Below are positions 6,035-57,541 of a stretch of DNA of 64,000 nucleotides, one piece after another. The position numbers were made by a program, and so were the translations under genes. Each line of letters starts with the position of its first letter. Positions within the stretch are counted from its first letter, which is position 1. The DNA lies in contig JBGAOA010000011.1 in assembly GCA_044222065.1 (NCBI GenBank), forward strand, positions 1,862-65,861, in the 5' to 3' direction. Source of the DNA: Candidatus Eiseniibacteriota bacterium. GTDB lineage: Bacteria > Eisenbacteria > RBG-16-71-46. The notes below the pieces were generated by a model. The model had not been told where the DNA came from, did no database searches, and saw only the letters and a list, made by a program, of their open reading frames with translations.

Positions 6035-6151
6035 GAGGGCGCGGAGGGTAGCACGGGCTTCCGAGAAGCCGGAGCTTGTCGGAGCAAGGCGTCGCGGAGA
6101 GAATGCCGCGGCCTTCGCGCCCCCGCCGGACTTCCCCGCGGAGGGCACGAT

Positions 6152-17064: not shown

Positions 17065-17514
17065 TTACTTGCCGCTCGAGAGTCGCATCGAGATCACGCC
17101 GCTCGAACCGTTGCCGGCGATGCAATACCTCGCCTGCGCGCTGTCGGCGTAGGCGACGATGCCCTGAACGGCGCTGAGCGGCGTGAGCGCCGGCGAGTAG
17201 GTCGGCTCGTCCACCCACGAGAGCCCGTCGCCCACGCGTCCGTCGAACGGATTGTGGAACGTCGCTCCGAGGCTCGGGAGCTTCGCCGCGACCCGCAAGG
17301 CGTCGTCGGCGTACCAGCCGTCGGCCTCGATGCCGTAGTCCTCGGCGGCGAGCTGGAACGTGTGCATGTTCTCGCGCGTCGCGGCTTCCTTCGCGCGATT
17401 GCGCATCGCGATGAAATTCGGCATCGCGATGGCCGCGAGCACCCCGATGATCACGATGACGATCATCAGCTCGATCAGGGTGAAGCCCTCGGCGTGCGGG
17501 CGGTGCGAGCGCAT
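17065..17514 (-). CDS. type IV pilin/pseudopilin (prepilin N-terminal methylation motif)
   Basis: ATG 17514 gives MRSHRPHAEG/FTLIELMIVIVIIGVLAAIAMPNF, the class III signal. Confidence 0.7.
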   Translation of the reverse strand: MRSHRPHAEGFTLIELMIVIVIIGVLAAIAMPNFIAMRNRAKEAATRENMHTFQLAAEDYGIEADGWYADDALRVAAKLPSLGATFHNPFDGRVGDGLSWVDEPTYSPALTPLSAVQGIVAYADSAQARYCIAGNGSSGVISMRLSSGK

Positions 17515-17764
17515 GCGCCGGGTATCGGCCGCCGGAGCGACTCCCTGCACCCGAAGTCTCGCGGGCAGGCCGGCCGAAGGGCCCGTCGCGGGCGTTGGCG
17601 GCAACGCGAGCCGCGCCCCCGACCCGGCGCCCGAGCCGGTCGCGTCACCCTCGATGCGCGGCGGTTTGCGCTTGGATTGCGCCGAGCGTCCCTCTAGCGT
17701 CGCGGCGTCGGCAGTGCCTCCAGAGTCCACGCCCGGATCCGGTCTCGAACCCGCGGAGGTCGTC

Positions 17765-20197
17765 ATGAGCCCGCTGCGCCGTTCCCCGTTCTTGCTCGCA
17801 CTCGGAGTGTCGCTGTTCTCGGCGGTCGGCCCGGCGCGCGAGGCGCGAGCGTCCTGGCCGCACGACCCGAGCGATTTCGTCGCCCTCGCACCGGCCCTCG
17901 GCGACACCTACCTGTTCGGATTCCGAGAGGCCGTGTCGGACGGGCAGGGTGGCGTCATCGCCGTGTACGACGTGATCGGGACTACCTGGGACGTCTATGC
18001 GCAACGCGTGGACGCCTCGGGGAACCGGTTGTGGGGCGCTTCCGGAGTCGCCGCGGCCTCCGGGCCCGGCAATCAGGACCAGTCCGTCGCGATCTCGGAC
18101 GGGCAGGGCGGGATCATCTTCGCCTGGGCGGACGACCGCGCGGGCGCCGCGAACACCGACATCTACGCGCAACGCGTGAACGCGAACGGCGTCCCCCTGT
18201 GGGGCACGGGTGGTGTGGCCGTCTGCACGCAGGCGGGAAATCAGACGGAGCCCGCGATCTGCTCGGATGGCCTCGGCGGAGTCGTCGTCACCTGGACGGA
18301 CGCGCGAGTGGGCCCGACGGACATCTACGCTCGCTTCGTCAACCAGGCGGGAGTGGCGCAGGGCGCCGCCGCGGGCATCACGATCTGCACGGCCGCGAGT
18401 GGGCAGGTCCACCCTCGCATCGTGCCGAGCTTCGGCACCGACTACATCGTCGTCTGGCAGGACGGACGTTCGGACGGTGGCGACATCTACGCGCAGAAGT
18501 TCTCGACGAACACCGGAACCGTGGCGTGGGCCGCGAACGGCGTCGCGATGTGCACCGCATTGAACACGCAGGAGTTCCCCGAGATCTGTCGCGACGGTCA
18601 GAACGGCGCCGTGGCGGTGTGGTGGGACTTCCGGAGCGCGACCACGATCTACGCGCAGCGCATCAGCTCGTCCGGAACGACGCAATACGCGGCGAACGGC
18701 ATCCAGCTCGGGCCCGCGGCGGGTTCCACCTCCGCGCAGATCGTCGAGGACGGCGAGGGCGGCGCGATCGTGGCCTGGACGGACTTCCGCTCCGTGCCGG
18801 GCGACATCTACGCGCAGCGGATCGAGTTGATGACGGGCCTCACGCAATGGACCTCGGGTGGAGCGATCGTGTGCACCGCGCTCGGCCAGCAGGCCGCCCC
18901 GAGCGTGGCGCCGGACGGCCGCGGCGGCGCGTACGTCGTGTGGCAAGACACGCGCTCCGGCGTGACGGGCCTCTACGGGCAGCACCTCGAGGGCTCCTTC
19001 GGCGCCAGGTTCTGGACGCAGAACGGCGTGCCGATCGCGACGGGATCCGACTACAGCGCGAATCAGACGCTCGTCAGCCGCGGTCCCGAGGGCGTGTTCG
19101 TCGCATTCTTCCGATTCGGCGTCGGGCCGTCGACCGCGGCCCTGCAGCGCGTCGACGGCTGGGGCTACCTCGGCGCGGAGCCCGCACTCGTTTCGGTGCG
19201 CGACGTCCCGAACGACCAGGGCGGTAAGGTCGTGGTCTCGTGGAACGCGAGCCCGCTCGACACCGATCCGCTCCTCTACTCGATCTACGAGTACCGGATC
19301 TTCCGCGCGGTTCCGACGACCGCGCTCGCGGTCGCGCTCCGCGAGCGCGGAAGCGCGCCGGCGGCGGCGTGGACGCCGGGCGCTGCGCCGCCACGCGCGC
19401 CGCTGCTCGCGCATCCGGAGCGGAACGGGACGTTCTCCTACTGGGAGTACGTCGCGACGACGCCCGCGAATCACCTCGACACGTACAGCCTCGTCGCTCC
19501 GACGGCCTCGGACTCGGTCGCGGGGTCGAATCCGCTGACGAGCTTCATGGTGCAGGCCCGCGGCAACGGGGTGGAGTTCTGGAATTCGAATCCCGACTCG
19601 GGCTACAGCGTGGACGATCTGGCGCCCGCGATGCCCGCGCCGTTCGCGGGCGCCTACTCGGCGGGCGCGACGGTGCTCGCGTGGGGCCCGAACGGGGAGT
19701 CCGACCTGGCCTACTACCGCCTCTACCGTGGCCACGGCGTCGGATTCGTTCCCGGCCCGGCGAACTTCGTCGCGGACCTTTCGACGACGAGCTTCACGGA
19801 CTCGCCCGGATCGGCCTACCTCTACAAGCTCGTCGCCGTGGATCTCCACGGAAACGTGTCTCCGCCCGCGCTCGCGATTCCCGGCGGAACGCTGCCCGTC
19901 GAGGACGTTGCGCCGAGCGTGGACTTCCTCGCACCCGCGGCTCCGACACCACTGCGCACAGCGTCGGCGACCCTGCGCTTCGGTATGGAGCGGGCAGGGC
20001 ACGCCCGGCTCGAGCTTTTCGACGCGCTCGGACGCCGCGTGCGAACGCTCTTCGATGCCGAGGCCGCGGCGGGCGAGCACCGCGTCGTGCTCGAGCGCGT
20101 GGGGCGCGACGGAATTCCGCTCTCGCCCGGGCTGTATCTCGCGCGGCTCGAGACGGCCCGGTTCCGCGCGACGCGGCGCATCGTGGTCGTGGACTAG
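17765..20197 (+). CDS. secreted tandem-repeat (about 54 aa x7) protein with C-terminal sorting/Ig-like domain
   Basis: ATG 17765 has GGAGG 6 nt upstream and is followed by a signal peptide. The repeat consensus is DG.GG..V.W.D.R.G..DIYAQR....G...W...GV..... Confidence 0.65.
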   Translation: MSPLRRSPFLLALGVSLFSAVGPAREARASWPHDPSDFVALAPALGDTYLFGFREAVSDGQGGVIAVYDVIGTTWDVYAQRVDASGNRLWGASGVAAASGPGNQDQSVAISDGQGGIIFAWADDRAGAANTDIYAQRVNANGVPLWGTGGVAVCTQAGNQTEPAICSDGLGGVVVTWTDARVGPTDIYARFVNQAGVAQGAAAGITICTAASGQVHPRIVPSFGTDYIVVWQDGRSDGGDIYAQKFSTNTGTVAWAANGVAMCTALNTQEFPEICRDGQNGAVAVWWDFRSATTIYAQRISSSGTTQYAANGIQLGPAAGSTSAQIVEDGEGGAIVAWTDFRSVPGDIYAQRIELMTGLTQWTSGGAIVCTALGQQAAPSVAPDGRGGAYVVWQDTRSGVTGLYGQHLEGSFGARFWTQNGVPIATGSDYSANQTLVSRGPEGVFVAFFRFGVGPSTAALQRVDGWGYLGAEPALVSVRDVPNDQGGKVVVSWNASPLDTDPLLYSIYEYRIFRAVPTTALAVALRERGSAPAAAWTPGAAPPRAPLLAHPERNGTFSYWEYVATTPANHLDTYSLVAPTASDSVAGSNPLTSFMVQARGNGVEFWNSNPDSGYSVDDLAPAMPAPFAGAYSAGATVLAWGPNGESDLAYYRLYRGHGVGFVPGPANFVADLSTTSFTDSPGSAYLYKLVAVDLHGNVSPPALAIPGGTLPVEDVAPSVDFLAPAAPTPLRTASATLRFGMERAGHARLELFDALGRRVRTLFDAEAAAGEHRVVLERVGRDGIPLSPGLYLARLETARFRATRRIVVVD
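17927..19115 (+). repeat. about 162-nt coding tandem repeats (7 copies, degenerate)
   Basis: DIYAQR-anchored units recur every 52-56 aa. Confidence 0.55.
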
Positions 20198-25420: not shown

Positions 25421-27031
25421 GTGCGAGCGACGAATCAAGCCCACCCCACGCGCCCGAAACCCGTGGCGCGCGTGACGTTCTGCCTGCTCGCCTGCGCGCT
25501 GCTCGCGGGCGACGCCGGACCCGTGCCGAGCCGCGTCCCGGCGGCGACCGCGTCGGCGGCCGCCGAGAGCGGGCGCGTGCCGCCCTTCGTCCTGTTCGGC
25601 TGGGTGAGCCCGCCGGTCGCGCGCACTTCGCAGGCGCGGCTGCTCGAGTACGCCGGCTGCGGGCTCGACCTCGCGATGCCGGCGTGGCTCGACTCCGGGC
25701 GATTCGAAGCGAACGCCGCGCGCTGCGCGTGGGCCGACACGGCCGGCGTCGCTTGCCTCGAGTGGGACGCGCGGCTCGAGCGCGCGCAGCCGGGATTCCC
25801 CTCGGCCGATTCCGTCTTCGCCGCCGTCGTCGCCGACTATCGGACGCGGCCGGGCTTCTTCGGCTGGTACTTCTCGGACGAACCGCTCGAAGCCGAGTTC
25901 CCGCTGCTCGCCTACTACTTCGCCAAGCTGCGCGCGCTCGATCCCGCGCATCCGAGCTTCAACAACCTGCTGCCGGCTTATGCGATGAGCGGTCACGAAG
26001 CGTGGCTCGCCTACGCCCGTCGCTACTGCGACGAGGTGAAGCCCGCGATCCTGTGCAACGACCACTACGACTTCCTCGAGGGCGAAGACCGCGGCCTGTT
26101 CGTTCAGAACCTCGCGGGACTGCGCGCCGTCTCGCGCGAGTACGGGATTCCGTTCTGGACCGTCGTGCAGCTCATTCCGCACGGCACGTATCGCCCGCTC
26201 TCGGCGGGCGAGCTCGAATGGCAGTGCTCGATGGCGCTCGCGTACGGCGCGCGCGGCATCGGCTACTTCACGTACTGGACGCCCGATCCGGATCCGGTGT
26301 GGAACTGGCAGAGCGGCATCCTCACGAACGACGGCGAACGCACCGCGTGGTACGACGTGCTCGCGAACTGGAATCCGATCGTGCGCCGCGCGGGGGAGAC
26401 GCTCGCGCCGCTCACGTGGCTCGCGACGGTGCACGCGGGCTCGCTTCCGATCGGCGCCACGCCGTTCGCGGCCGACGCGCTCGTGTGCGGCGTCGAAGGC
26501 CGCGCGGCGATCGGCTGGTTCGCCGACGCGGCCGGCGTGCGCCACGCGCTCGTCGCGAACGCCGACTCGCTCGCCTCGCGCACGGTGACGCTCGCGCTCG
26601 CCGCCGGCGCGCGGGTCGAAGCGTTCGATGCCGCGAGCGGTGCGTGGCACGCGGCGGCGCTCGACGGCGGCGCGAACGCGCCGCGGCTCGCGCTGCCGCT
26701 CGGCGCGGGCGAGTTCGCGCTCGTGCGCTTCCCCGGCTCGGAAGACGGCGGCCTCGCGGCGGGCGCGCCGCCCGTGCTGCGCGCGTGGCCGTCGCCCGCG
26801 CGCCGAAGCGTCACGTTCGCGGTCGAGCGCGCGACCCGGGGCGCGCGTCTCGAAGTGCTCGATGCCGGCGGACGGCGCGTGTGGGGACGCGACCTCGGAT
26901 CGGGGTTCACCTCGATCGCGTGGGACGGCGAGCGGGACGGCGGCGGCGCCGCGCCCCACGGCCTCTACTTCGTGCGGGTCGAGGACGCGAACGGCGTCGC
27001 CGCGCGGCGCCTCGTGTGGCTCGGGCGATGA
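25421..27031 (+). CDS. secreted putative glycoside-hydrolase-like protein with C-terminal sorting/Ig-like domain
   Basis: GTG start, signal peptide, TIM-barrel-like WYFSDEP motif, and a C-terminal tail (LEVLDAGGRRVW...GLYFVRV). The exact start is uncertain. Confidence 0.6.
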   Translation: MRATNQAHPTRPKPVARVTFCLLACALLAGDAGPVPSRVPAATASAAAESGRVPPFVLFGWVSPPVARTSQARLLEYAGCGLDLAMPAWLDSGRFEANAARCAWADTAGVACLEWDARLERAQPGFPSADSVFAAVVADYRTRPGFFGWYFSDEPLEAEFPLLAYYFAKLRALDPAHPSFNNLLPAYAMSGHEAWLAYARRYCDEVKPAILCNDHYDFLEGEDRGLFVQNLAGLRAVSREYGIPFWTVVQLIPHGTYRPLSAGELEWQCSMALAYGARGIGYFTYWTPDPDPVWNWQSGILTNDGERTAWYDVLANWNPIVRRAGETLAPLTWLATVHAGSLPIGATPFAADALVCGVEGRAAIGWFADAAGVRHALVANADSLASRTVTLALAAGARVEAFDAASGAWHAAALDGGANAPRLALPLGAGEFALVRFPGSEDGGLAAGAPPVLRAWPSPARRSVTFAVERATRGARLEVLDAGGRRVWGRDLGSGFTSIAWDGERDGGGAAPHGLYFVRVEDANGVAARRLVWLGR

Positions 27032-32255: not shown

Positions 32256-34343
32256 TCAGCGCCGCACGATCAGCTTCTGCTGCTTCCGGGACCCGGCGGC
32301 CTCGAGCCGCGCGAAGTACACGCCCGCGGGTGCCGCGACTCCGGCGGCGTCGCGCGCGTCCCAGCGCGCGGCGTGTTCGCCGGGATCCAGGACGCGCTCG
32401 ACGAGCGTCGCGACGCGCCGGCCCGTCACGTCCACGATCGAAAGCCGCACGCCGGTCGCGATCGGGAGCGCGAAGCGCAGCGTCGCGCCGTCCGCTCCGA
32501 ACGGATTCGGGGCCGGTGACGCGAGCGTGACGCCGTTGGGCGCATTCGCCTCGAGCGGCGCGTCCACGAGACAGCCCTGGAGCGCGGCGCGGATCTCCTC
32601 GCGGAACATCTCGCGGCACGCGTTCGCGACGCGTATCGCGGCGCCGTTCTGATCGAGCGCGAGATTCACGAACGCGCCGAAGCCGTACTCGACGCCCCCC
32701 GAGACTCCGCACTGCGGGAGGCGCGCCCAGCCCGCGCGCGCGAAGTAACCGCGCCCCGGATCGTTCGGAAACGGATCGAGCCCGTAGCCGCCCGGCTTGT
32801 AGCGCACCGCGATGCCGCTCTGGAACGCCGCGAGCACGCCCGGAGACAAGCCGAGCGAAGCGCCTTCCTCGGCGGCGATGTCCCGCAGATGCGTCTCCAT
32901 GCTGGAACCGGGTCCGGCCATGTAGCTGAACAGCGTGTCGCGCCACTGGGGCGAGATCGCGCTCGCGCGGGCGATGTTCTCGTAGATGCGGCACATGTCG
33001 GCCGGCGTGAAGCGGCCGGGGCTCACGACGGCCTCTTCGCCGCACCCGATCGTGTGGCCGACCGCCGAATTCAACACCCCGCCCCACGTCGCGGCCGTTG
33101 CGTTGATCGAGTCCATGCCGAAGTGCGAGCGGACGAACTGCGTCGCCGCGTTGTCCGAGTTCATCATCATGAGCCAGACGACCTTCCGCAGCGGCAGGTA
33201 CAGGTACGGACTGCCGCCCGTGGGGCAGCTGCTCCCGGTCGCGATGTAGCCGTTGCCCACGAAGTACGGGTCGTCGAGTCCGTCCAGGCCCTGCTGCACG
33301 CGGCGCATCACGTGCAGCTCGTGGAAGATCTTGAGCGCGCTCGCCGGTTCGCTCTCGTAGTCGTCGTTCAGACCGCCGACGACCGCGCCGTTCACGCGCT
33401 TGAGCTGGAAGCCCGTCACGCCGTCCGACCCGTATCCGAGCACGTCCCCGATGCGCTGCACGAAGCCGCTCTCGTTGTTGGTCAGCGTGACCGCGTAGCG
33501 CGTCTGCACGGTCAGGCCGACGAGCACGTTGTACGCCTCGAGGTCCCCGATGCGCGCCCCGTATTGCGCGCACAGCCCGTCGAGCGCGCTCGCGGGCTGG
33601 TCGAAGAACCACCACTGGCGCGCCGCCCACGTGCCCGTGTTCGGCACGAGGATCGCGTTGAAGCGCCGCGAGCCGCTCTCGAGATAGGTCTCGACCGAGT
33701 AGAGCCGCGCGTTGTTCGACGACTGGAACGCGTTGAGGCTCGCTTCGGTCTCGCCGAGGAGCCACCACCAGCCCGTCGCCTCCGCGCCGGTGTTCCGGAC
33801 CATGAGGCACGTGTAGAGCCGCGTGCCGCTGACGACGTAGGTCTCGAGGTCGATCAGGCGCGCGTCGTTCTGGTTGAGCAGCGTTCCGATCTCGGCCGCC
33901 GTCTTGTCCACGTAGAACCACGTGTCGCGCTGGTACGGGCCGGTGTTGCCCACCATCACGCCGGCGAAGCGCACGGCGCCGGAAACGAGGTAACGCTCGA
34001 CGTCGATCAGGCGCGCCTGGTTCGCGGTGACGGCCGCGCGCAGCTGCGCCTCGGTCTGGTGGTAGGCCCACGACGTGCCGTTCTCGAAGTTCGCGTTCGA
34101 GTTCTCGACGAGCACGGCCGCGAACTCGGGAGGATCGGCCTGCTCGACCTCGAGGTCGTGCAGGCGCTTCGTCGAGTGCACCCCGAGGAAGTAGGCGAGC
34201 GCGGCCGGAGTGAGACCGGTCGCGTGCGCGGAAGACGTGATCGCCTCCGTGCGACGGGCATCGCCCGCGACGGCCGAGCCGGCGACGCAAAGGGCGCAGA
34301 TCGCCAGTGCCGTCAACGATGTCAGGTTCGAAGTCCGCGACAT
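32256..34343 (-). CDS. secreted protein: 51-aa tandem repeats + class A beta-lactamase-like serine-hydrolase domain + C-terminal sorting/Ig-like domain
   Basis: ATG 34343 has GGAGG upstream and is followed by a signal peptide. The motifs SALK .. 61 aa .. SDN .. KPG have class A spacing. The C-terminal tail reads RLSIVDVTGRRVATL..GVYFARL. Confidence 0.6.
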   Translation of the reverse strand: MSRTSNLTSLTALAICALCVAGSAVAGDARRTEAITSSAHATGLTPAALAYFLGVHSTKRLHDLEVEQADPPEFAAVLVENSNANFENGTSWAYHQTEAQLRAAVTANQARLIDVERYLVSGAVRFAGVMVGNTGPYQRDTWFYVDKTAAEIGTLLNQNDARLIDLETYVVSGTRLYTCLMVRNTGAEATGWWWLLGETEASLNAFQSSNNARLYSVETYLESGSRRFNAILVPNTGTWAARQWWFFDQPASALDGLCAQYGARIGDLEAYNVLVGLTVQTRYAVTLTNNESGFVQRIGDVLGYGSDGVTGFQLKRVNGAVVGGLNDDYESEPASALKIFHELHVMRRVQQGLDGLDDPYFVGNGYIATGSSCPTGGSPYLYLPLRKVVWLMMMNSDNAATQFVRSHFGMDSINATAATWGGVLNSAVGHTIGCGEEAVVSPGRFTPADMCRIYENIARASAISPQWRDTLFSYMAGPGSSMETHLRDIAAEEGASLGLSPGVLAAFQSGIAVRYKPGGYGLDPFPNDPGRGYFARAGWARLPQCGVSGGVEYGFGAFVNLALDQNGAAIRVANACREMFREEIRAALQGCLVDAPLEANAPNGVTLASPAPNPFGADGATLRFALPIATGVRLSIVDVTGRRVATLVERVLDPGEHAARWDARDAAGVAAPAGVYFARLEAAGSRKQQKLIVRR
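33474..34172 (-). repeat. about 153-nt coding tandem repeats (about 4.5 copies)
   Basis: ARLIDxExY..SG.R......V.NTG units recur every 51 aa. Confidence 0.5.
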
Positions 34344-34661
34344 GAGCCCTCCTCGGGACGAGTTCCGAGGGAGTAGTCCCTGAAATCGACGAGGAGGGGA
34401 CACCCGCGGACGGCCGCGGGCTTCGACAAATCGCCGCCACCACCCTCAAGGAATCAGGCGAGGCGGCGATGATTGCGAGGGTCGGCCGGGGACCCGGTGC
34501 CGTGGAGGGGTCTCCCTCCGCCATGCCCGCCGCGGAGGCCGTGCGGCCCGCATGCACCGAGGCGCGAGGCGCCCCCCGGACGTTCGCGTCCGGAGAACCG
34601 CCGCATTCCCTCGGACGCGCCCACTTTCGGCCTCGGGATCGGCGGCATCACGGAGGTCGAG

Positions 34662-36413
<1,752 letters not shown>

Positions 36414-36744
36414 CCGAGCGGTCGAGCCGGCGCGGACATCGAAACGACCCTGGCGCGGACGGCCCTCACGCATGCGTGTCGCCTGGCTCCGCCCGCATCG
36501 CCGCGCTTGACGCCGCGCTCGAGTCACCCGCCCGACGCCGCGTCGGGCGGCCACGCGCCGATCCGCTGTCGCGACGCCACGATCTTGCCGAGGCGGAGAG
36601 GGACAGTTCCGAGACAGTTCGGTGAACAGAGAGGGCGGCAAGCCGCCGGAAGATCCTGCGGCCTCATGGAGGAAGCCGGCGTCCCCAACGGGATTCGAAT
36701 CCCTTGACTCCGCTCGCATCGCCGCTCACATTGCGTCTCGACAT

Positions 36745-36945
36745 CTTCCGGGTGCCCACGCTCGGTGGGGAAAAGGGAAGGGGGTGCGAATCCCCCACGG
36801 TCCCGCCACTGTGAAGGGCGAGGGAGCCTCAGAACGTCACGGATCGCGACGCGATCCGGAAGACGAGGTTCCCCGGGGACGCGACGCCGCGCATCGCGCG
36901 TGACGCCGCGCCCCACGCCCCAAGTCAGGAAACCTGCCCGGAAGC
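36745..36945 (+). promoter_or_regulatory. cobalamin (B12) riboswitch
   Basis: In correct order the element contains GGUGCC, GGGAA-AGGGAAGG, GGUGCGAAUCC, CCCGCCACUGU (36795-36812) and the B12 box GUCAGGAAACCUGCC (36924-36938). It sits upstream of a TonB-dependent receptor. Confidence 0.7.
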
Positions 36946-36993
36946 CATTCGCCCGACGCGCCTCGACGAACGCGCGTGCGGAGTGGCGTCTCT

Positions 36994-37032
36994 GCCCTTC
37001 TCCGTGCGCACCCGTCCGGCGGAAGGGCTTTT
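36994..37032 (+). terminator. riboswitch expression-platform terminator-like hairpin
   Basis: GCCCUUC...GAAGGGC forms a stem followed by UUUU, 23 nt before the receptor ATG. Confidence 0.45.
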
Positions 37033-37054
37033 CGATTGAGGCGCGAGAGACGCC

Positions 37055-39082
37055 ATGATCGTTCCGCTGCTTCTGAGCCTCGCGCTCGCCGCCGCACCCG
37101 CGGACACGGCGAGCCGATGCGAACCCGTCCTCACCCTTCCCGAGCAGCGCGTGAACGACACGCGCTCCCCCTCGCTCGCCGAACGACGCGTGCCAACGGG
37201 CTTCGTCGCGAGCCTGCGCCCCGCCGACCGCACGCAGGCGCTGCAGTCGTTCAGCGACGTGTTCGCCGACGTCACCGGCGCGCGCATCGTCCAGTACGGC
37301 GGGCTCGGCGCGTTCGCGACCGTGTCGCTGCGCGGCGCGCCGCCCGGCCAGGTGAGCGTGTACCTCGACGGCACGCCGATGAACTCCGCGGCCTCGAGCG
37401 TCGTGAACCTCGCCGACCTGCCGATCGCGCCGATCGAGCGCGTCGAGGTCTATCGCGGTTCGAGCCCGCTCTCGCTCGGCGGTGCGGCGCCGGGCGGAGC
37501 GATCCAGCTCGTGTCGCTGTCGCGGCCCGAAGTGCGCGAGCTCAAGCTCACGCGCGGCTCGTTCGGTTCGTGGGAGGGCCGTGCGAGCGCGGGCGCGCGC
37601 CGCGGCGCGTTCGAAGGCGTGCTGCACGCGGGCTACCTCGGCTCGAACGGCGACTACGCCTACGACGACGACAACGGCACGCCGTTGAACGCCGCCGACG
37701 ACAGCGTGAGCACGCGCGCGAACAACCGGCTCGATGCCGTGAACGCGCTCGCGAGCGTGGCGTGGAATCCGGCGGGGCCATTGCGCGCGGTGCTGCGCCA
37801 GCACCTGTTCCGGCGCGCGGGCGGCGTCGCGGGGCTCGGCGCGGTGCCGGCGCGTCACGCGCGACTCGAGTCGCGGCGCACGCTCACGCAGTTCGAGGTG
37901 CACGACCGCGGCGGCGCGTGGCGGCCGCGGCTCGCGCTGCGCGGCTCGCTCGGCCGCGAACGCGGCGACTTCGACGACGCGATCGGCGAACTCGGGCTCG
38001 GACGCCATGACGCGACGCAGCGCTTCGCGAGCGAGCAAGGGGCGCTCGAGGCCGAGTGGCCGACGCTCCCGCGCGGCGTGCTGCTCGAAGGCGCGCTCTC
38101 GGCGCGGAACGAGCGCGCCGACGTCGGCGACCGCGCCGACGGCGCGCCGGATGCGCCGCGCAGCCGGCGCTCGACGCGCTCGGGCGTGGCCGGCGTGCGG
38201 CTGCGCCCGCTCGGCGACCACGTGCTGCTGCGTGCGGCGCGGCGCTGGGACCGCGTCGAGGACCGGCTCAACGTCGCGGGCTTCGGCGGGGCGATCGCGA
38301 CGACGCACGCGGCGCGCACGCTCGATTCGCCGCAGCTCGGCGCGGCCGTGCGCCCGTTCGAGTCGTTCGAACTGCGCGCGAACTGGGCGCGCGCGAGCCG
38401 GCCGCCGGACTTCGCCGAGCTGTTCGGCAACCAGGGCAGCGTGCTCGGGAACGCGAATCTGAAGGAGGAGCGGAGCGAGAACTGGGATGCGGGGGCGCGT
38501 CTCGCGACGCGCTCCGCGCCCGGCGCGCGCCGCTTCGGCGCGAGCGCCGAGTTCGCGCACTTCGTCTCGCACGCGCGCGACCTCATCCTGTACGTGCGCA
38601 ATTCGCAAAGCAGCGTGAAGGCGCAGAACGTCTCGGCGGCGCGCATCGAGGGCGACGAGCTGACGCTCACGCTCGACACGCCCTGGACGCTCGCCGCGAG
38701 CGCGCACGCGACGCGCGAGGACGCGCGCGACACGGGCCCGGTGCCGTCCTGGAGCGGCAAGCGACTGCCGCAGCGCCCGGGTCTCGAGGCCGGCGCGCGC
38801 ATCGAATGGCGCCCGGCGCCGTTCCGGCTCGCCGCCGACGTCCACTACCTCGGCGACGACTACCTCGACCGTTTCAACCGCTACCGCGAGACGAGCCGCA
38901 CGCTCGTCGGCGCGTCGCTGCGCTGGTCGCCGCCGTCCTCGCCGTTCGAGCTGACGCTCGAGGGCAAGAACCTCGGCGACGTGCGCGCCGCCGACGTCGG
39001 CGGCTTCCCGCTTCCCGGCCGCAGCCTGTGGATCGCGGCCGGATACCGACACGACGCGGCGTCGCGCCGCGAGGAGAACTGA
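37055..39082 (+). CDS. TonB-dependent receptor (BtuB-like, B12 riboswitch-controlled)
   Basis: The 675-aa protein has a signal peptide, a plug domain and a barrel. It ends in an aromatic-rich C-terminus. Confidence 0.8.
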   Translation: MIVPLLLSLALAAAPADTASRCEPVLTLPEQRVNDTRSPSLAERRVPTGFVASLRPADRTQALQSFSDVFADVTGARIVQYGGLGAFATVSLRGAPPGQVSVYLDGTPMNSAASSVVNLADLPIAPIERVEVYRGSSPLSLGGAAPGGAIQLVSLSRPEVRELKLTRGSFGSWEGRASAGARRGAFEGVLHAGYLGSNGDYAYDDDNGTPLNAADDSVSTRANNRLDAVNALASVAWNPAGPLRAVLRQHLFRRAGGVAGLGAVPARHARLESRRTLTQFEVHDRGGAWRPRLALRGSLGRERGDFDDAIGELGLGRHDATQRFASEQGALEAEWPTLPRGVLLEGALSARNERADVGDRADGAPDAPRSRRSTRSGVAGVRLRPLGDHVLLRAARRWDRVEDRLNVAGFGGAIATTHAARTLDSPQLGAAVRPFESFELRANWARASRPPDFAELFGNQGSVLGNANLKEERSENWDAGARLATRSAPGARRFGASAEFAHFVSHARDLILYVRNSQSSVKAQNVSAARIEGDELTLTLDTPWTLAASAHATREDARDTGPVPSWSGKRLPQRPGLEAGARIEWRPAPFRLAADVHYLGDDYLDRFNRYRETSRTLVGASLRWSPPSSPFELTLEGKNLGDVRAADVGGFPLPGRSLWIAAGYRHDAASRREEN

Positions 39083-39083
39083 C

Positions 39084-40490
39084 ATGCTTCGTGCCCGACT
39101 CCGGTTTCTCCTCGCGTGCGCGGCGCTCGTCGCGCCTTCCGTCACTCCGTCGCGCGCCGCCGAAACGAAGGCGTTCGTCGCGTGCAGCGACTTCTCGACC
39201 GGCTCGCTCGACGTCGTGAACCTCGGCACGCGCGCCGTGTCGCGGGACGTGGAGCCGATCCACTCCGACGCGCGGCTGCGCTTCTTCGGCGGCGAGCTGT
39301 ACGTGATCAACCGCTTCGGCCAGGACAACGTGCAGGTCGTGAACCCGGCGACGAACCAGACCGTGCGGCAGTTCTCGACGGGGAACGGGTCGAATCCCTA
39401 CGACCTCGCGTTCGTCTCGGCGACCAGGGCTTACGTGACGCGCTACGACCGCGCCTCGATCCTGATCGTGAACCCGCAAACGGGGGCGGAACTCGGCACG
39501 ATCGATCTCGCGGCGTTCGCCGACGCGGACGGACTGCCCGAGATGGACCACGCCGTGCGCGTGGACGACCGCGTGTTCGTGTCGCTGCAGCGCCTGAATC
39601 GCAGCGCCGGCTACGCGCCGACCGATTCGAGCCTCGTCGTCGTGATCGACGCGGACGCCGACACGGTGCTCGACGCCGACCCGGCGCACGCCGGCAAGCA
39701 GGCGATCCGGCTCGCGGCGAAGAACCCGGTGACGGCGTTCGCGTTCGACGCCGCGAGCGCCCGCCTCCTCGTCGGCTGCGCCGGGGTCTACGGCGCGACG
39801 GACGGCGCGGTCGTCGCGCTCGATCCCGTGCACCTGACGAGCCTCGGCACGGTCGCGACCGAGGCGAACCTGGGCGGGGACCTCGGCGACCTCGCCTGGT
39901 GGTCGGCGACGCGCTCGTACGCGATCGTGAGCGACGCCGCGTTCAACACGAAGCTCGTCGCGTGGAATCCGACGACCGGGCTCTCGCTCGGCGCGATCGC
40001 GAGCCCGTCGGGGTTCGTGCTCGCCGACGTCGAGCTGAACGACCGGGGCGAGCTGTACCTGTGCAACGACGATTTCGTGCTCGGCGGCGTGTCCGTGTAC
40101 GCCGCCGCGACCGGCGCGCTGCTCGCGGGTCCGCTGCCGATGAGCCTGCCGCCGCAGGCGGTGACGTTCGATGCGCCGAGCGGAATCGTCGTCGGCGCCG
40201 AGGAGCGTTTCCCCTCGTTCGCGTTCGCGCCGCCGTCGCCGAACCCGGCGCGTTCGAGCATCGCGTTCGCGCTCACGCTGCCGGAGGCGGGCGATCTCGC
40301 GCTCGAGATCGCGGACGTCGCCGGGCGCCGCGTCGCGACGCTGGCGCGCGGCACCGCAACCGCTGGGACGCATCACTTCGAGTGGAACTTGAAGTGCGAA
40401 GGCGGCGGCTCGGCGCCCTCGGGCGTCTACTTCGCGTGCGCCGCGATCGGCCGCGAGCGCGTGACGCGCCGGCTCGTCGTCGTGCGCTGA
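39084..40490 (+). CDS. secreted beta-propeller-like protein with C-terminal sorting/Ig-like domain
   Basis: It starts 2 nt after the receptor stop. A signal peptide is followed by YncE-like repeats. The C-terminal tail reads LALEIADVAGRRVATL...GVYFACA. Confidence 0.65.
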   Translation: MLRARLRFLLACAALVAPSVTPSRAAETKAFVACSDFSTGSLDVVNLGTRAVSRDVEPIHSDARLRFFGGELYVINRFGQDNVQVVNPATNQTVRQFSTGNGSNPYDLAFVSATRAYVTRYDRASILIVNPQTGAELGTIDLAAFADADGLPEMDHAVRVDDRVFVSLQRLNRSAGYAPTDSSLVVVIDADADTVLDADPAHAGKQAIRLAAKNPVTAFAFDAASARLLVGCAGVYGATDGAVVALDPVHLTSLGTVATEANLGGDLGDLAWWSATRSYAIVSDAAFNTKLVAWNPTTGLSLGAIASPSGFVLADVELNDRGELYLCNDDFVLGGVSVYAAATGALLAGPLPMSLPPQAVTFDAPSGIVVGAEERFPSFAFAPPSPNPARSSIAFALTLPEAGDLALEIADVAGRRVATLARGTATAGTHHFEWNLKCEGGGSAPSGVYFACAAIGRERVTRRLVVVR

Positions 40491-40790
40491 GCCGTCGAAC
40501 GCGCGAGCGCGAGTGCGATCCGAGCCGCGAAAATCACGCTCGGAACCGTCGTTCGCGCTTGCGCCTCGCCCGCTCCGCGGTTAGATTGCGCGCGCTGCTC
40601 GGCGGAAACGGCCCCCACGCCGTCGTCCGCCATCTCCCAGGGCACGCAACCGGGTCAGCGACGGATCGCACCGGATCCCCGCGAAGCCCGTTCCCCAGCT
40701 CTCCAGACATCGAAGCAGGCCGCCGCGCTCGACATCTCGCGCTCGTGGACCCGACTCGTCCGCGCGCCACACCGGGGCTTGGGAGGGACA

Positions 40791-41453
40791 ATGGTTTTTT
40801 CGCGGCTAGGGATAGTCGCCACCGCGATCGCCGGCATCACGCTGCTGGGGTTCGCACCGTCGGCTCACGCCGCCGACGTCACATTGATCTGGACCGCGCC
40901 CGGGGACGACGGCTACACCGGAATCGCGACCTCGTACGATCTGCGTTATTCCACGACGCCGATCAACGACGGGAATTTCGCGTTCGCCTCCCGTGTGATG
41001 AACGCCCCGTCGCCGAGGCAGCCGGGCAGCCTGCAGTTCCACATCGTTCAGGGTCTGCAGGCGAACCTCGACTACTTCTTCGCGCTCAAGACGTGCGACG
41101 AGCGCGGGAACTGGTCGGCGATCTCGAACATCGCCGTCCACACGGGCGAGAAGCTCGCGAGCGAGGACTCCGTCCTCCAGCTCGCCGTGAGTCCGCCGAG
41201 CCCGAACCCCGCGCGCTTCGACGTCCGCTTCGAGATCACGCTGCCCACCGAAGCCGAGGTGGACGTGCGCGTGTTCGACATCACCGGTCGTGAATTGAGC
41301 CGCGTCGCCTCCGGCGTCTACGACGCCGGGCGCGCGCAGGTGAGCTGGAACCTCCTGGATCGGACGGGTCGTCGCGTGGCGCCCGGCGTCTATCTGGTCC
41401 GGGCCCGGCTGGGAGGCGAGTCCTTCTCGAGGAGGGTTCTCGTCACGAATTAG
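40791..41453 (+). CDS. secreted FN3-like protein with C-terminal sorting/Ig-like domain
   Basis: ATG 40791 follows GGAGG and a signal peptide. The C-terminal tail reads VDVRVFDITGRELSRV..GVYLVRARLGG. Confidence 0.6.
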   Translation: MVFSRLGIVATAIAGITLLGFAPSAHAADVTLIWTAPGDDGYTGIATSYDLRYSTTPINDGNFAFASRVMNAPSPRQPGSLQFHIVQGLQANLDYFFALKTCDERGNWSAISNIAVHTGEKLASEDSVLQLAVSPPSPNPARFDVRFEITLPTEAEVDVRVFDITGRELSRVASGVYDAGRAQVSWNLLDRTGRRVAPGVYLVRARLGGESFSRRVLVTN

Positions 41454-41572
41454 CGTCGTCGGCGCCGCAGGGAGGCGGCGCCACGCGACGCGTTTGCGCG
41501 CGCGCGTCGCCGGTTCGTAGGCTGCGCGCGGCGCGCACCGGGACGACCCTCGGGCGCGCGGAGACCTGCACC

Positions 41573-42979
41573 GTGCCCCGCACCCCGGCCGCGATCCTCG
41601 CGGTCCTTTGCGCTGCCGTCGTCGCTGTCGTCGCGATCACGACCGCTTTCGCCGACGGCCCGCTCGATACGACGAGCGTGTATCCGCCGCCCGCTCCGCG
41701 CGTCGCCGCGCCCGCAGCACCCGCCGACACCGGGCTCGCCGACTCGCTCGCCGCCGCGCCCGCGGGACCGCGCGACTACGTCGGCGAGCTGCGCGCGAAC
41801 TTCACGCCCGCGAACCGGACCTACGCGCGCATCCGCCAGACGCTCTCGTTCGCGGCGCCGCTGTACGCGCTGTTCGTGGCCGCCGTGCTGCTGTTCTCGG
41901 GCGGTTCGGCGCGCATCCGCGCGCGCATCGAGGGGCTCGTCCAGAGCGGCTACGTGCGCGCGATGCTCTACGTGACGCTCTACTTCGTCACCGTCACGGT
42001 GCTGTCGCTGCCGTTCGACGTCTACCGCGACTGGGCGCTCGAGCGGCAGTTCGGGCTCTCGACGCAGAGCTTCGGCGCGTGGGTCACGGATCACGGCAAG
42101 TCGCTCGCGTACCTGATCGTCCTCTATGGAATCGTGCCGGTCGTGTGGGGTGCGCTCGCCGTCGTGCGGCGTTCTCCGCGCTTCGCCTGGGCGTGGCTCG
42201 GCGTGCTCGGGCTGCCGCTCTCGATCGCGCTCGTGTGGCTCGCGCCGCTCTTCGTGGACCCGGCGTTCAACCGCTTCACGCCGCTCGAGGACTATGACCT
42301 GCGCGTCGGCCTGCGCGATCTCACGGCGCGCGCGGGCATCGCGGGCGCGCAGACGTTCCAGGTGGACAAGAGCCGCCAGACGAAGAAGGTGAACGCGTAC
42401 GTCACCGGCTTCGGCGGTTCGCACCGCGTCGTGCTGTGGGACACGCTGATCCGCCAGATGAAGCGCGACGAGGTGCTGTTCGTCTCGGCGCACGAGATCG
42501 GCCACTACCGGCTCGGGCACGTGTTCAAGGGCATCCTGCTCAGTTCGGCGGGATCGCTCGCGTTCCTGCTCGTGTACTTCGCGCTCGCGCGCGCCTCGCT
42601 CGGGCGCTGGGGCTCGGATTGGGGCGTGCGCGGGCTCGACGACCTCGCCGCGCTGCCGCTCCACTTCGCGCTGCTCGGCGCGCTGACGTTCGCCACCGCG
42701 CCGATCACGAACGCCGTCTCGCGCTCGATGGAGCACGACGCCGACGTCTACGCCCTCGAGATCACGCGCGACAACGACGCCGGCGCGCGCACGTTCCTCG
42801 CGCTTGCGCGCGAGAACCGCTCCGATCCCGATCCGGCGCCGCTCGCGCGCTGGTTCCTGTGGACCCACCCGCCGCTCCTGGACCGCGTGCGTTTCGCGAT
42901 CGCGTACCGGCCGTGGGAGGAGGGGAAGCCGAACCGGCTCTACCGCGGGCCCGAGGCGGGAGCGGTCGCGGGGCGCTGA
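41573..42979 (+). CDS. M48-family zinc metallopeptidase (Ste24/HtpX-like)
   Basis: The HEIGHYRLGH zinc-binding motif is present and the protein is multi-TM. Confidence 0.8.
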   Translation: MPRTPAAILAVLCAAVVAVVAITTAFADGPLDTTSVYPPPAPRVAAPAAPADTGLADSLAAAPAGPRDYVGELRANFTPANRTYARIRQTLSFAAPLYALFVAAVLLFSGGSARIRARIEGLVQSGYVRAMLYVTLYFVTVTVLSLPFDVYRDWALERQFGLSTQSFGAWVTDHGKSLAYLIVLYGIVPVVWGALAVVRRSPRFAWAWLGVLGLPLSIALVWLAPLFVDPAFNRFTPLEDYDLRVGLRDLTARAGIAGAQTFQVDKSRQTKKVNAYVTGFGGSHRVVLWDTLIRQMKRDEVLFVSAHEIGHYRLGHVFKGILLSSAGSLAFLLVYFALARASLGRWGSDWGVRGLDDLAALPLHFALLGALTFATAPITNAVSRSMEHDADVYALEITRDNDAGARTFLALARENRSDPDPAPLARWFLWTHPPLLDRVRFAIAYRPWEEGKPNRLYRGPEAGAVAGR

Positions 42980-54010: not shown

Positions 54011-55225
54011 GTGTCGCGCATCGTCGCCCTCGCGGGGGCCGTCATCGTCTTCGCATCGCTCGTCATCGCCGTCCGACAGGCCGGCGCCATTCCCGTGTTC
54101 GCGCGCCGTTACGGCGCGAGCTGTGAGCGCTGTCACGCGCCGTTCCCGAAGCTCACGGCAGCGGGGGAGGGTTTCGCCGCGCACGGCTTCCGCCGGCGGG
54201 CCGGAGAGACGCCGCCCGACACGATCGGGACGAGCGATCCACTGCTCGTGCTCGGCGCCGAGTTCCCGCTCGCGATTCGCTTCGACATGAACGTACAGCT
54301 CGTGAACGACGACGAGGATGGGTCGCGCACCGACTTCCAGGCGCCGTGGGTGTTGAAGGTGCTTTCGAGCGCGCCGCTGTCGAAGTCGCTGTCGTACTAC
54401 TTCTACTTCCTGATGTCCGAGCACGGCGAGGTCGAGGGCGTGGAGGACGCGTACGTGCACTGGGACGACGTCGGCGGTCGGCCGTTCGATCTCGTCGTCG
54501 GGCAGTTCCAGGTGAGCGATCCGCTCTTCAAGCGCGAGCTGCGTCTGCCGTTCGAGGACTATGCGATCTACGGCGCGCGAATCGGCGCGCTCGCGACGAA
54601 CCTCACGTACGACCGCGGCTTGATGGCCGCCTTGACGCACGGCCGCGCCTCGTTCGTCGGTGAGATCGTGAACGGCAACGGCAAGGAGGCGCCCGAGGGC
54701 CGCGCGACGCTCGACGACGACGCGCCCAAGAACGTCGCGGCGCGCGTGTCGCTCGACGCGGTGCCCGAGCGCTTCCGCATCGGAGGCTTCGCGTACTCCG
54801 GCCGGCAGGACGGCGAATCCGCAGGCGGCGATCGTGTGCGCGCGGAGGTCTGGTACGCCGGGCTCGACGCGACGTGGCGCGGCGGTCCGTGGGAGCTGAA
54901 CGCGCAGTGGCTCCATCGCGCGGACCGGCGTCCGACCTTCACGCCGGGCGAACCCGACGCCGCGACCGACGGCGGATTCGTCGAGGCGCTGTGGATTCCC
55001 GAGGACGCGCGCTGGTACGGCTACGGTCTCTGGAACCGCGTGGATTGCGACCATGCGCTGCTCGCGGGCGGGGAAGAAGGCGACGCCGCGTCGTCGCGGC
55101 TCCAGTCGTTCGCCGCGGGCGCAGGCTATCTCGTGCAGCGCAACGTGCGGCTTCAGGGCGAAGCCGCGTGGGACACGGAAGCCGAGCGCTTCCGCGCGAC
55201 GCTCACGCTGTCCGCGGCGTACTGA
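54011..55225 (+). CDS. outer-membrane beta-barrel protein carrying an N-terminal CxxCH heme-binding motif
   Basis: The GTG start follows AGGAGG and a signal peptide. CERCH sits 18 aa into the mature protein. The beta-barrel-like C-terminus ends ..LTLSAAY. Confidence 0.6.
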   Translation: MSRIVALAGAVIVFASLVIAVRQAGAIPVFARRYGASCERCHAPFPKLTAAGEGFAAHGFRRRAGETPPDTIGTSDPLLVLGAEFPLAIRFDMNVQLVNDDEDGSRTDFQAPWVLKVLSSAPLSKSLSYYFYFLMSEHGEVEGVEDAYVHWDDVGGRPFDLVVGQFQVSDPLFKRELRLPFEDYAIYGARIGALATNLTYDRGLMAALTHGRASFVGEIVNGNGKEAPEGRATLDDDAPKNVAARVSLDAVPERFRIGGFAYSGRQDGESAGGDRVRAEVWYAGLDATWRGGPWELNAQWLHRADRRPTFTPGEPDAATDGGFVEALWIPEDARWYGYGLWNRVDCDHALLAGGEEGDAASSRLQSFAAGAGYLVQRNVRLQGEAAWDTEAERFRATLTLSAAY

Positions 55226-55643
55226 CGACGCGAGATCGGGCGCGCGCGACACGCGGCTGTCCGAAAGTCGGGACGAGCCGGCGACCGCGGCGGCCGCTCA
55301 CGCGGTCCCGGCGCACGATCCCGCCCTCGATTCGAATTCCGGCACGTCCGGGACCGCAACCCACGAGACGAATTGTCTGCGGAGCGACGGGCTCAGCAGC
55401 ATAGACTTGTCGCGCGAAGCAGGATCGTCCGTTCGTTTCCGCGAGTGACGAGTTCGCTCTCATCCGCGCGGGCGCTCGAGAGAACGCGCGACCTGCGACG
55501 TCACTTCGCGAGGAAGGTCAGGGCCGGCAAAGCGCCGGCATCGCCGCAGGGCTCCGAACTCGTTCACCGCCTCGACGCCGGCCTGTGCCGGGCATCACCT
55601 GCGGTTCGGCGTCGTTCGGGTGCCTCGACCGTGGAGGTACGCC

Positions 55644-56486
55644 ATGCCTGGACCTCGTCCGCCGTTCGCCGACCGAATCCGGTCGTTCTTCCGTCCGCAT
55701 CTCCGGCTCTCGATCGCGTCGTGCTTCGCGGCCCTGTCGCTCGTGCGGGCGGCTGGAGCAGAATCCGTCGACTTCGACACGTACCCCGGCGGCGCCGCGG
55801 TCCCGCCCGGCGCGACGATCGGAGATCAGTGGAAGAGCCTGGGCGTCATCTTCTCCGACGCGGTCGGTGGCGCCGTCGGCGCCTCCAACAACTCGTGCTC
55901 CCTCACCGCGCCCAACCACGCCTACGCCGCCACGATCGTCGCGCGATTCGTGGATCCCGTGTCGGGTGCGCAGGCCCTCACCAGCTACGCGGGCACCGCT
56001 CAGGACAATTGCTGGGTTCCCGGTGAGGGCATCGCGATGCGGGCCTACGGTCTCGGCGGCGATCTGCTCGGCAGCATCTTCAATTCCGGCGGAGGCCACT
56101 TCGAGGCCTTCAGTTACCCCACCGCCGTCATCGCTCGACTCGAGATGGACTGCATTCTGCAGGGGATCGACAACTTCGTCTTCAACGCGACGACGCTCGT
56201 GGACGTCGCGGGTCGGCCGAACGCATTTCGGTTGGAGCCGCTTCATAACCCTTCGCTCCGCGGCCGGGTGAACGTGTCCTTCTCGCTGCCGGCGCCGACC
56301 GCGGCCCGACTGGAACTGCTCGACGTGAACGGGCGTCTCCTCACGTCGCGCGCAGTGGAATCGCTGGGAGCGGGCGGGCACACCGTGGATCTGGCGGCGG
56401 GCCTCGGCCTGCCGCCGGGACTCTATCTGGTGCGTCTCCGGCAGGGCGCGGACGCGCGCGTGGCGCGCGTCGTGGTGCTCGACTAG
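55644..56486 (+). CDS. secreted protein with C-terminal sorting/Ig-like domain
   Basis: ATG 55644 has GGAGG 6 nt upstream and is followed by a signal peptide. The C-terminal tail reads RLELLDVNGRLLTS..GLYLVRLRQG. Confidence 0.6.
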   Translation: MPGPRPPFADRIRSFFRPHLRLSIASCFAALSLVRAAGAESVDFDTYPGGAAVPPGATIGDQWKSLGVIFSDAVGGAVGASNNSCSLTAPNHAYAATIVARFVDPVSGAQALTSYAGTAQDNCWVPGEGIAMRAYGLGGDLLGSIFNSGGGHFEAFSYPTAVIARLEMDCILQGIDNFVFNATTLVDVAGRPNAFRLEPLHNPSLRGRVNVSFSLPAPTAARLELLDVNGRLLTSRAVESLGAGGHTVDLAAGLGLPPGLYLVRLRQGADARVARVVVLD

Positions 56487-56701: not shown

Positions 56702-57541
56702 CTACCGCGCCTTTCGCTTGCCGTGATGCAGCTGCGCTTCGCGCTTCCTCGCCCAGGCGTCCATCCAGATCACGAACTTTCGCGGCGGCGGAATCGCGAA
56801 GTCGCGTGCGGTCGCCACGCGACCCTCGAGCAGCAGGTCCTTGGGCTGGTGATAGGTGCCGAACACCCAGTCGGCGATCGGCAGCGAGAAGAAGCCTGAA
56901 ATGGCCTCGTTGCACGAGATGTTGGCGTGATGCATGTGATGGAAGCCATACAGCTTGCGCCAGAGCGGCCCGAAGCGAGGGTGCTCCGTCGCGTGTTTCC
57001 ACCAGTCGTACGGACGATGCTCGATTGCGTGCAGGATCTCGTACAGGCACATGGACCAGGTGATCGCCGCGTAGCCACCCATGAGCACCGGCGCGTGCGG
57101 GATCAGAAACTGGACGCCGACCAACAGCGGCGTGAACACGACCCAGAATGCCACGATCGCGTAGGGCGGGAACGCCGAGTCGATGAACTGCGCCTCCTCG
57201 ACGATCGGGTAGCGGTTGAGCACGTAGCGATCCGAGCCTTCGGAGACCTGCTGCAGTCGGATCGGCGTCAGCCCGTGATGACTGCGATGGCCTCGCGCGA
57301 AGTAGAGCAGCCACGGGGTGGTGACCGAATGGAGCACGTAACGGTGGAAACCCCATTCGAAGAAGCACAGGAAGAGGTGGACCGCCAGGAACGAGACCAG
57401 CAATGCGGGCCAGCCCGCCTCGAACTGATTCGCCCACACACCGGGGAGCAGGAAGCGGAACGCGAGCAGCAGCAATCCGTACTGCGCGAGCGCCTGGATG
57501 CTGAACCACGCGATGGAGAACTTCTTCTGAACTCGGCTCAT
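56702..57541 (-). CDS. fatty acid hydroxylase/sterol desaturase superfamily membrane protein
   Basis: Histidine boxes HRYVLH, HRSHH and HHMHH are present, along with TM segments. Confidence 0.75.
   Translation of the reverse strand: MSRVQKKFSIAWFSIQALAQYGLLLLAFRFLLPGVWANQFEAGWPALLVSFLAVHLFLCFFEWGFHRYVLHSVTTPWLLYFARGHRSHHGLTPIRLQQVSEGSDRYVLNRYPIVEEAQFIDSAFPPYAIVAFWVVFTPLLVGVQFLIPHAPVLMGGYAAITWSMCLYEILHAIEHRPYDWWKHATEHPRFGPLWRKLYGFHHMHHANISCNEAISGFFSLPIADWVFGTYHQPKDLLLEGRVATARDFAIPPPRKFVIWMDAWARKREAQLHHGKRKAR

Follow-up and report, generated by a model that had tools for sequence, protein, structure and literature searches.

A cobalamin riboswitch ahead of a TonB-dependent transporter and a BtuG-like secreted propeller in Candidatus Eisenbacteria: a putative corrinoid capture pair with a proposed C-terminal anchor

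BLASTP searches of gut genomes led to the report that BtuG, the beta-propeller partner of the corrinoid transporter BtuB, occurs exclusively in Bacteroidetes (PMC6143338). A locus in Candidatus Eisenbacteria raises the question of whether the same kind of capture protein operates outside that group, and of how it would be held at the cell if it did. The locus lies in a 64-kb stretch of DNA with a G+C content of 71%, which was analysed as a whole and is called the window here; the homologues of its proteins bear Candidatus Eisenbacteria labels. An RF00174 riboswitch, a gene for a TonB-dependent transporter and a gene for a BtuG-like secreted propeller form a two-gene locus. I take this locus to be most likely a B12-repressed corrinoid capture pair of the BtuB/BtuG type, whose propeller would be tethered through a C-terminal sorting domain where BtuG has a lipid. 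The parts of this reading that I infer are corrinoid binding, the location at the surface, a complex with the transporter and the mechanism of switching.

The riboswitch, the transporter and the propeller

The sole Rfam match within the window was a cobalamin riboswitch aptamer (RF00174) at 36733-36955 (+), which covered the full model (positions 1-189 of 189) with 89.8 bits and E=1.6e-22, against a gathering score of 31.5 bits. An earlier interpretation made from the letters alone, the sequence-only reading, had proposed such a riboswitch and had placed its B12 box, GTCAGGAAACCTGCC, at 36924-36938 (+); the full-model match bears out the former, and the box was found at exactly that position. 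The aptamer ends 100 nt upstream of the start codon of the transporter gene.

This gene (37055-39082, +) encodes a TonB-dependent outer-membrane transporter of 675 aa, a putative corrinoid importer with a Plug domain (PF07715, E=2e-16) and a TonB_dep_Rec_b-barrel domain (PF00593, E=6e-32), in agreement with the TonB receptor recognised by the sequence-only reading. Its best sequence match in the Protein Data Bank (PDB) was E. coli BtuB (E=3e-16), with BtuB1 and BtuB2 of B. thetaiotaomicron further down. Like the window transporter, E. coli BtuB is a TonB-dependent outer-membrane transporter under a cobalamin riboswitch; the match between the two is mostly confined to the plug domain, and E. 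coli BtuB is not known to have a propeller partner. ARAGORN called a 95-nt tRNA-Arg(ccg) at 38087-38181 (-), within the transporter coding region, which is probably a false positive in GC-rich sequence.

The stop codon of the transporter gene (39080-39082) is followed, after a gap of 1 nt, by the open reading frame of a secreted propeller protein of 468 aa (39084-40490, +). Its AlphaFold2 model, built with 38 homologues, had a mean pLDDT of 91 and consisted of a signal peptide, a seven-bladed propeller (residues about 29-362 in the model), a linker and a C-terminal beta-sandwich. The signal peptide takes up residues 1-25 (39084-39158, +), with cleavage after SRA as judged by eye. The BtuG-like propeller, a putative corrinoid-binding domain delimited by the model, Foldseek and profiles, spans residues about 26-364 (39159-40175, +). 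It is joined to the last domain by a low-confidence linker of ~20 residues (~365-385), in which the block 371-380 had a pLDDT of 61. The putative C-terminal Ig-like sorting domain at residues 386-468 (40239-40490, +) was recognised by PF13860 and TIGR04183, at residues 386-466, as a FlgD_ig domain or type A C-terminal domain (CTD) of a type IX secretion system (T9SS). A secreted propeller with an Ig-like tail right after the receptor had thus been described correctly from the letters.

Sequence searches placed the propeller part poorly: Pfam gave no family for it, only a sub-threshold match to DUF6923 (E=0.05), and a single-sequence phmmer search against the PDB found FlgD only, through the tail. 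Three comparisons of structures and profiles gave a clearer answer. In a Foldseek search of solved structures, rank 1 went to an archaeal S-layer protein with a YVTN propeller and a PKD domain that aligned to both domains of the model, while ranks 2-14 were all Bacteroides BtuG proteins (BtuG1-3), mostly cobalamin-bound, with E about 1e-15, TM 0.76-0.81 and rmsd 3.3-3.8 A (BtuG entries among the matches: 3DSM, 8BAI, 8BMY, 8BMZ, 8BN0, 8OKV, 8BMX chain D and 8P97 chain B). The family profile, run with hmmsearch against the PDB, retrieved every BtuG sequence (E=1.2e-4 to 2.8e-4, residues 102-213) and no other propeller. An hhalign comparison of the family with twelve Bacteroides BtuG sequences, which Wexler et al. 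2018 provide as supplementary material (PMC6143338), gave a probability of 96.6% with E=5e-10 over 302 columns, which rose to 98.1% and E=9.5e-14 with a multi-phylum profile of 72 sequences. Taken together, these comparisons of profiles and predicted fold indicate that the window propeller is a distant but genuine homologue of BtuG.

The sequence-only reading had called the protein YncE-like and had likened it to BtuG by analogy. The second comparison held up when the predicted structure was set against solved ones, where the propeller was closest to corrinoid binders. The first is right for the seven-bladed YVTN-type fold, but E. coli YncE was a weaker structural match than BtuG by five orders of magnitude (E about 1e-10, TM 0.65) and was not matched by the profile. 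E. coli YncE is not known to have a tie to a riboswitch or a transporter operon.

The putative ligand face was compared with that of BtuG2, whose polar contacts are E55, G56, Q93, N107, S131, R135, W149, S195 and Q219 (bioRxiv 10.1101/2024.02.16.580637); R135 is R133 by count on the sequence used here. The window protein has chemically similar residues at some five to seven of the contact positions, both polar and aromatic ones, with blades 1-2 aligning ambiguously. Among these, S131 is replaced by N104, W149 by Y121, S195 by T180 and Q219 by N214, all conserved similar replacements; Y177 is the residue aligned to W194, a hydrophobic contact, and the neighbouring prolines are kept (P132/P105 and P220/P215, BtuG2/window). 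Residues conserved to at least 95% across phyla made up 27% of the A-B and C-D loops, as opposed to 8% of the other loops (Fisher p=0.006), and the BtuG2 ligand contacts map to the same A-B and C-D loops. This distribution speaks for a ligand site on the face that corresponds by homology to the pocket of BtuG2, and falls short of proving that the ligand would be a corrinoid.

Gene order and anchors across phyla

Scanning a genome collection with the single protein sequence gave no match, and an alignment-based scan was needed. With one genome per species, the latter found a relative in 244 genomes, and the best 80 loci were fetched (numbered here with the prefix L). These belonged to Eisenbacteria, Latescibacterota, Gemmatimonadota, Krumholzibacteriota and Handelsmanbacteria, besides a few contigs with other labels. 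Of the 80 loci, 77 had a transporter homologue directly 5' of the propeller gene, and two others were cut by contig ends. In L055 the order of transporter and propeller was reversed, with the riboswitch directly 5' of the propeller gene. Since the same order is kept in nearly all of these loci and the gap in the window is only 1 nt, the transporter and propeller genes are very likely co-transcribed.

The riboswitch was conserved to a similar degree. Rfam found a cobalamin riboswitch in 11 of 11 diverse loci, and an nhmmer profile of those aptamers extended this to 68 of the 69 loci whose upstream sequence was long enough; riboswitch, transporter and propeller occurred together in 68/69 testable related loci. 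In 30 loci, of Latescibacterota and relatives, the propeller gene was followed at once by a gene for a PduO-type cobalamin adenosyltransferase, and in 26 of these by BtuF-, BtuC- and BtuD-like genes; the 30 stand for few independent lineages because many are at least 90% identical. By predicted gene content, the loci with adenosyltransferase and btuFCD-like genes are complete B12 uptake and salvage operons.

The transporters of Latescibacterota (L043, 3678-5975, and other loci) carry an N-terminal carboxypeptidase-regulatory-like domain of ~100 aa, as in SusC-type transporters. This extra domain accounts for the constant spacing of 303 nt between the riboswitch and the region of transporter homology in that phylum.

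The label BtuG was absent from the cluster entries of the window proteins and of their lipoprotein-type relatives, and relatives were labelled as hypothetical, YncE-like (COG3391, JGI), BamB-like or FlgD-domain proteins. Searched against 1.84 billion proteins, the propeller domain alone matched representatives of clusters formed at 50% identity: 2,172 with E no higher than 1e-3, of which 1,365 had E no higher than 1e-10.

How the propeller may be held at the cell was approached through the layouts of its relatives. The window protein has no lipobox: Cys12 is not conserved and is preceded by too short an h-region. Its CTD scored 30.6 bits with PF13860 (FlgD_ig, cut-off 27), and the tail of the family profile matched the CTDs of the T9SS proteins PorU (E=4e-5) and PorZ. 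Most relatives across phyla likewise have a type I signal peptide without a conserved Cys, and keep the CTD. These observations fit the suggestion, already made from the letters, that the C-terminal tail serves as an anchor in place of a lipid.

A second layout was found as well. Layouts were counted for the complete proteins within the top 150. Of these, 23 had the layout of the window protein (CTD, no lipobox), and in three more a CTD was combined with a loose match to the lipobox pattern. The BtuG layout, with a lipobox and no sequence beyond the propeller, was seen in at least 22, frequently with an acidic stretch following the Cys; 13 had additional N-terminal domains. The lipoprotein-type propeller stands behind a riboswitch and a transporter in L081, and does so in L085, where BtuF-like, ABC ATPase and FecCD permease genes follow it in this order; in L087 it comes after a transporter. 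In L082 (4721-6098) the riboswitch lies directly 5' of a lipoprotein-type propeller gene without an adjacent transporter, and the next gene is thiC. Both kinds of anchor occur even within Eisenbacteria, where the homologues in L031 (5860-6999) and L033 (about 5900-6939) have the lipobox LAGC in place of a type I signal peptide, and the L031 protein stops right after the propeller, without a CTD, as a natural anchor swap. Because lipid and CTD anchors replace each other on one conserved core, the tail can be argued to serve as a tether.

FlgD_ig-type C-terminal domains were found on five unrelated secreted proteins of the window, encoded at 10412-11035, 25421-27031, 32256-34403, 39084-40490 and 40791-41453. 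With five such proteins in 64 kb, the tail looks like a lineage-wide sorting tag in Eisenbacteria.

As for the neighbourhood, the true upstream neighbour of the locus is a PAS histidine kinase gene at 34473-36413 (+), called from third-position GC, which favoured it over a 757-aa open reading frame at 34446-36719 (-) that was rejected. Downstream, 300 nt 3' of the propeller gene, a gene at 40791-41453 (+) with its own Shine-Dalgarno-like GGGAGGG encodes a secreted fn3-like protein of 220 aa with the same FlgD_ig/T9SS-type tail. About 12 Eisenbacteria loci have homologues of it in the interval from the propeller gene to the M48 peptidase gene; the gene is duplicated in L019, L025 and L035 and absent from L005, L007 and L031. 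The fn3 protein was checked as a candidate B12 binder and dropped, having no similarity to known B12 binders. An M48/CAAX-type membrane metalloprotease gene (41573-42979, +) is syntenic 3' of the propeller in about 20 Eisenbacteria loci, whether the fn3 gene stands in between or not. Elsewhere in the window, five sizeable genes with coding-type GC3 had no Pfam match at E up to 1e-4: 17360-20197 (+), encoding 945 aa, 54011-55225 (+), 55620-56486 (+), 56702-57541 (-) and 62914-63936 (-).

The leader between aptamer and start codon

The sequence-only reading had also pointed out a GC-rich stem followed by UUUU at 36994-37032 and had taken it as consistent with transcription attenuation. The hairpin is present at 36994-37028 (+), with 14 bp of which 10 are G-C pairs and a free energy of -19.7 kcal/mol, and so is the U tract directly after it (37029-37032), but a strict scan of 36400-41700 listed neither a terminator on the + strand nor a sigma-70 promoter. 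The scan passed over the hairpin because its loop is too long and only four T follow, and it was recovered only by a targeted comparison of leaders.

This comparison covered 23 Eisenbacteria leaders chosen by their common start-codon motif, L018 being poorly anchored by the search motif. Equivalent hairpins of differing sequence occurred in these leaders, with a median of -23.4 kcal/mol and 14 bp, directly 5' of a U-rich tail; in 20 of the 23 leaders this tail held four or more U within 9 nt. Two further elements emerged from the same alignment. Directly 3' of the aptamer, an RNAalifold consensus helix forms a small first leader hairpin at 36956-36977 (+), which showed compensatory changes, with 4 pairs kept despite changes on both sides. 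At the other end, a nearly invariant block of 29 nt, CGAUUGAGGCGCGnGnGACGCC(A/G)UGAUCG, includes the start codon (37033-37061, +). In the consensus this block was predicted to form a local helix between CGAUU and GAUCG; in the minimum free energy fold (-37.2 kcal/mol, z=-2.2) it forms, alternatively, a long-range helix with the GGCGUC segment at 36985-36993 that would enclose the terminator-like hairpin.

These predicted start-codon helices suggest translational control besides, or in place of, termination. The hairpin does resemble a terminator, and termination is plausible; since the start codon is itself part of a conserved helix, attenuation is not the sole mechanism that could operate, and start-codon masking is just as possible. 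One simple antiterminator, a pairing of the 3' strand of aptamer helix P1 with the hairpin's 5' strand, was tried and was not supported: in 22 leaders, mean duplex energies were -9.2 kcal/mol as compared with -8.0 kcal/mol for shuffled sequences (Wilcoxon p=0.22), and the window leader fared worse than its own shuffles.

Competing explanations and what the locus means

On the reading that I favour, high cellular cobalamin would bind the leader RNA, which would refold and shut off both genes, either by premature termination at the conserved GC-rich hairpin with its U tract, or by hiding the start codon in the conserved helix, or by both means. When B12 is scarce, both genes would be expressed and the transporter would be inserted into the outer membrane. 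The signal peptide would direct export of the propeller, which the T9SS-type CTD would most likely then bring to the surface and retain there. With its conserved loop face the propeller would catch corrinoids for delivery to the transporter, which it would probably cover as a lid. BtuG passes corrinoids to BtuB from the outer face in just such a stable lid complex (PMC10404256).

The likeness to the Bacteroides proteins BtuG1/BT1490, BtuG2/BT1954 and BtuG3/BT2095, the partners of BtuB1-3, extends from the seven-bladed propeller of about 340 residues to the setting of the gene, which lies immediately 3' of a TonB-dependent transporter under a cobalamin riboswitch, with btuFCD-like genes in related loci and the conserved loop face on the side of the corrinoid pocket. 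Unlike BtuG, which has a lipobox Cys and a lipoprotein export signal, the window protein begins with a type I signal peptide, and unlike BtuG2 and BtuG3 it has a C-terminal T9SS-type Ig-like domain. This CTD resembles those of P. gingivalis PorU, PorZ and RgpB, which are also Ig-like C-terminal beta-sandwiches of about 80 residues, but it comes from a lineage outside Bacteroidota and scores marginally, and its part in secretion and attachment is putative. The proposed design, a ligand-catching surface protein capping a TonB-dependent transporter, is also that of the Bacteroides xenosiderophore pair XusB-XusA and of lidded transporters of the SusCD type. XusB is itself a beta-propeller, but it was a weaker Foldseek match than BtuG (E about 3e-9, TM 0.65) and was missed by the family profile, and the Xus pair differs in ligand and regulation, with iron in place of the B12 riboswitch seen here.

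A number of results weigh against this reading. Identity to BtuG is only 13-16%, below the level that BLASTP detects, and none of the nine polar ligand contacts of BtuG2 is identical at the aligned window residues. The transporter stays under the NCBIfam cut-offs for BtuB (91.5 bits against 599.7 for TIGR01779 and 77.2 against 836 for NF007926), and a siderophore-receptor model slightly outscores the BtuB models on it. Apart from the locus itself, the 64-kb window holds no B12 genes, neither BtuFCD genes nor a gene for a B12-dependent enzyme, and no antiterminator could be demonstrated in the 22 leaders. As regards the anchor, the CTD scores 23.4 bits with TIGR04183, barely above the cut-off of 23, and 17.7 bits with the Pfam T9SS tail model PF18962, under the cut-off of 27, and no T9SS components are encoded within the window. 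Documented cases of the T9SS are mainly from Bacteroidota, and for some other phyla of the FCB group the system has only been suggested (PMC11285876); a literature search on the T9SS in Eisenbacteria returned nothing useful.

The alternative that survives best, unlikely as it is, keeps corrinoid binding and gives up the tether: the propeller would be released and act as a diffusible, haemophore-like scavenger that returns B12 to the transporter. Homology and genomic context would be the same, the low-confidence linker between propeller and CTD would suit such a protein, and many T9SS cargo proteins of Flavobacteria are released and not anchored. Bacteroides BtuG is also reported to occur on shed vesicles (PMC11080852). 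Yet relatives with a lipobox and without a CTD occupy the same position in the operon, which argues for the need of a tether, and the stable lid complex that BtuG makes with BtuB (PMC10404256) speaks against a freely diffusing binder.

Improbable, in my judgement, is a periplasmic corrinoid-binding protein fed by the transporter, with a CTD that is not a secretion signal in Eisenbacteria. Such a protein would be at home in a window without T9SS machinery and with a tail under the Pfam cut-off, in an Eisenbacteria locus that lacks a BtuF-like gene, and its case is helped by the L031 lipoprotein variant, which has no acidic export motif after its Cys. However, in 26 loci a separate BtuF-like periplasmic protein is encoded beside the propeller gene, so that the two are not redundant, and BtuG acts at the outer face of its transporter (PMC10404256). 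The tail is moreover homologous to the genuine T9SS CTDs of PorU and PorZ, and its presence on five window proteins is as expected of a general export tag.

There is similarly little chance that the propeller binds no corrinoid and assists the transporter with cobalt, a metallophore or another tetrapyrrole, or as a generic partner of the YncE/XusB type. XusB and NirF/NirN are among the Foldseek matches (E about 1e-9), with ferrichrome as the ligand of XusB and haem d1 as that of NirF/NirN, and cobalt transporters also stand under cobalamin riboswitch control; the lack of identical contact residues and the siderophore-receptor score of the transporter, as good as its BtuB scores, point the same way. 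The case against it is made by BtuG being the closest family both by structure and by profile, by the place of the gene between transporter and adenosyltransferase-btuFCD-like genes in 26-30 loci, by propeller genes that stand under the riboswitch even without an adjacent transporter (L082, L055), by a conserved face that coincides with the BtuG2 pocket, and by BtuG1 itself having only about 60% of its contacts in common with BtuG2 (bioRxiv 10.1101/2024.02.16.580637).

With a tethered corrinoid capture pair as the preferred reading, the locus is solidly an extension of the BtuB-BtuG pair to other phyla with a different anchor, rather than a new principle. In the literature searched, there was no mention of BtuG together with Gemmatimonadota, Latescibacterota or Eisenbacteria. 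I lean, by a little more than an even chance, towards the view that BtuG-type capture is an ancient and widespread module of uncultured soil, groundwater and sediment phyla and not a Bacteroidetes invention, that its tether has been swapped between lipid and CTD on a fixed core, and that the forms of Eisenbacteria and Latescibacterota are a second, divergent class of very tight B12 binders with different pocket residues.

Few microbes make B12 while most need it, and for this reason the ability to scavenge it shapes microbial communities; BtuG is the tightest known bacterial B12 binder. Recognition of a riboswitch-linked, BtuG-like propeller would assign a function to a large unannotated protein family and would mark Eisenbacteria, Latescibacterota, Gemmatimonadota and their allies as dedicated corrinoid scavengers. 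It would also offer divergent binding pockets to set against that of BtuG2, and a natural experiment on how a surface capture protein is tethered, by a lipid or by a C-terminal sorting domain.

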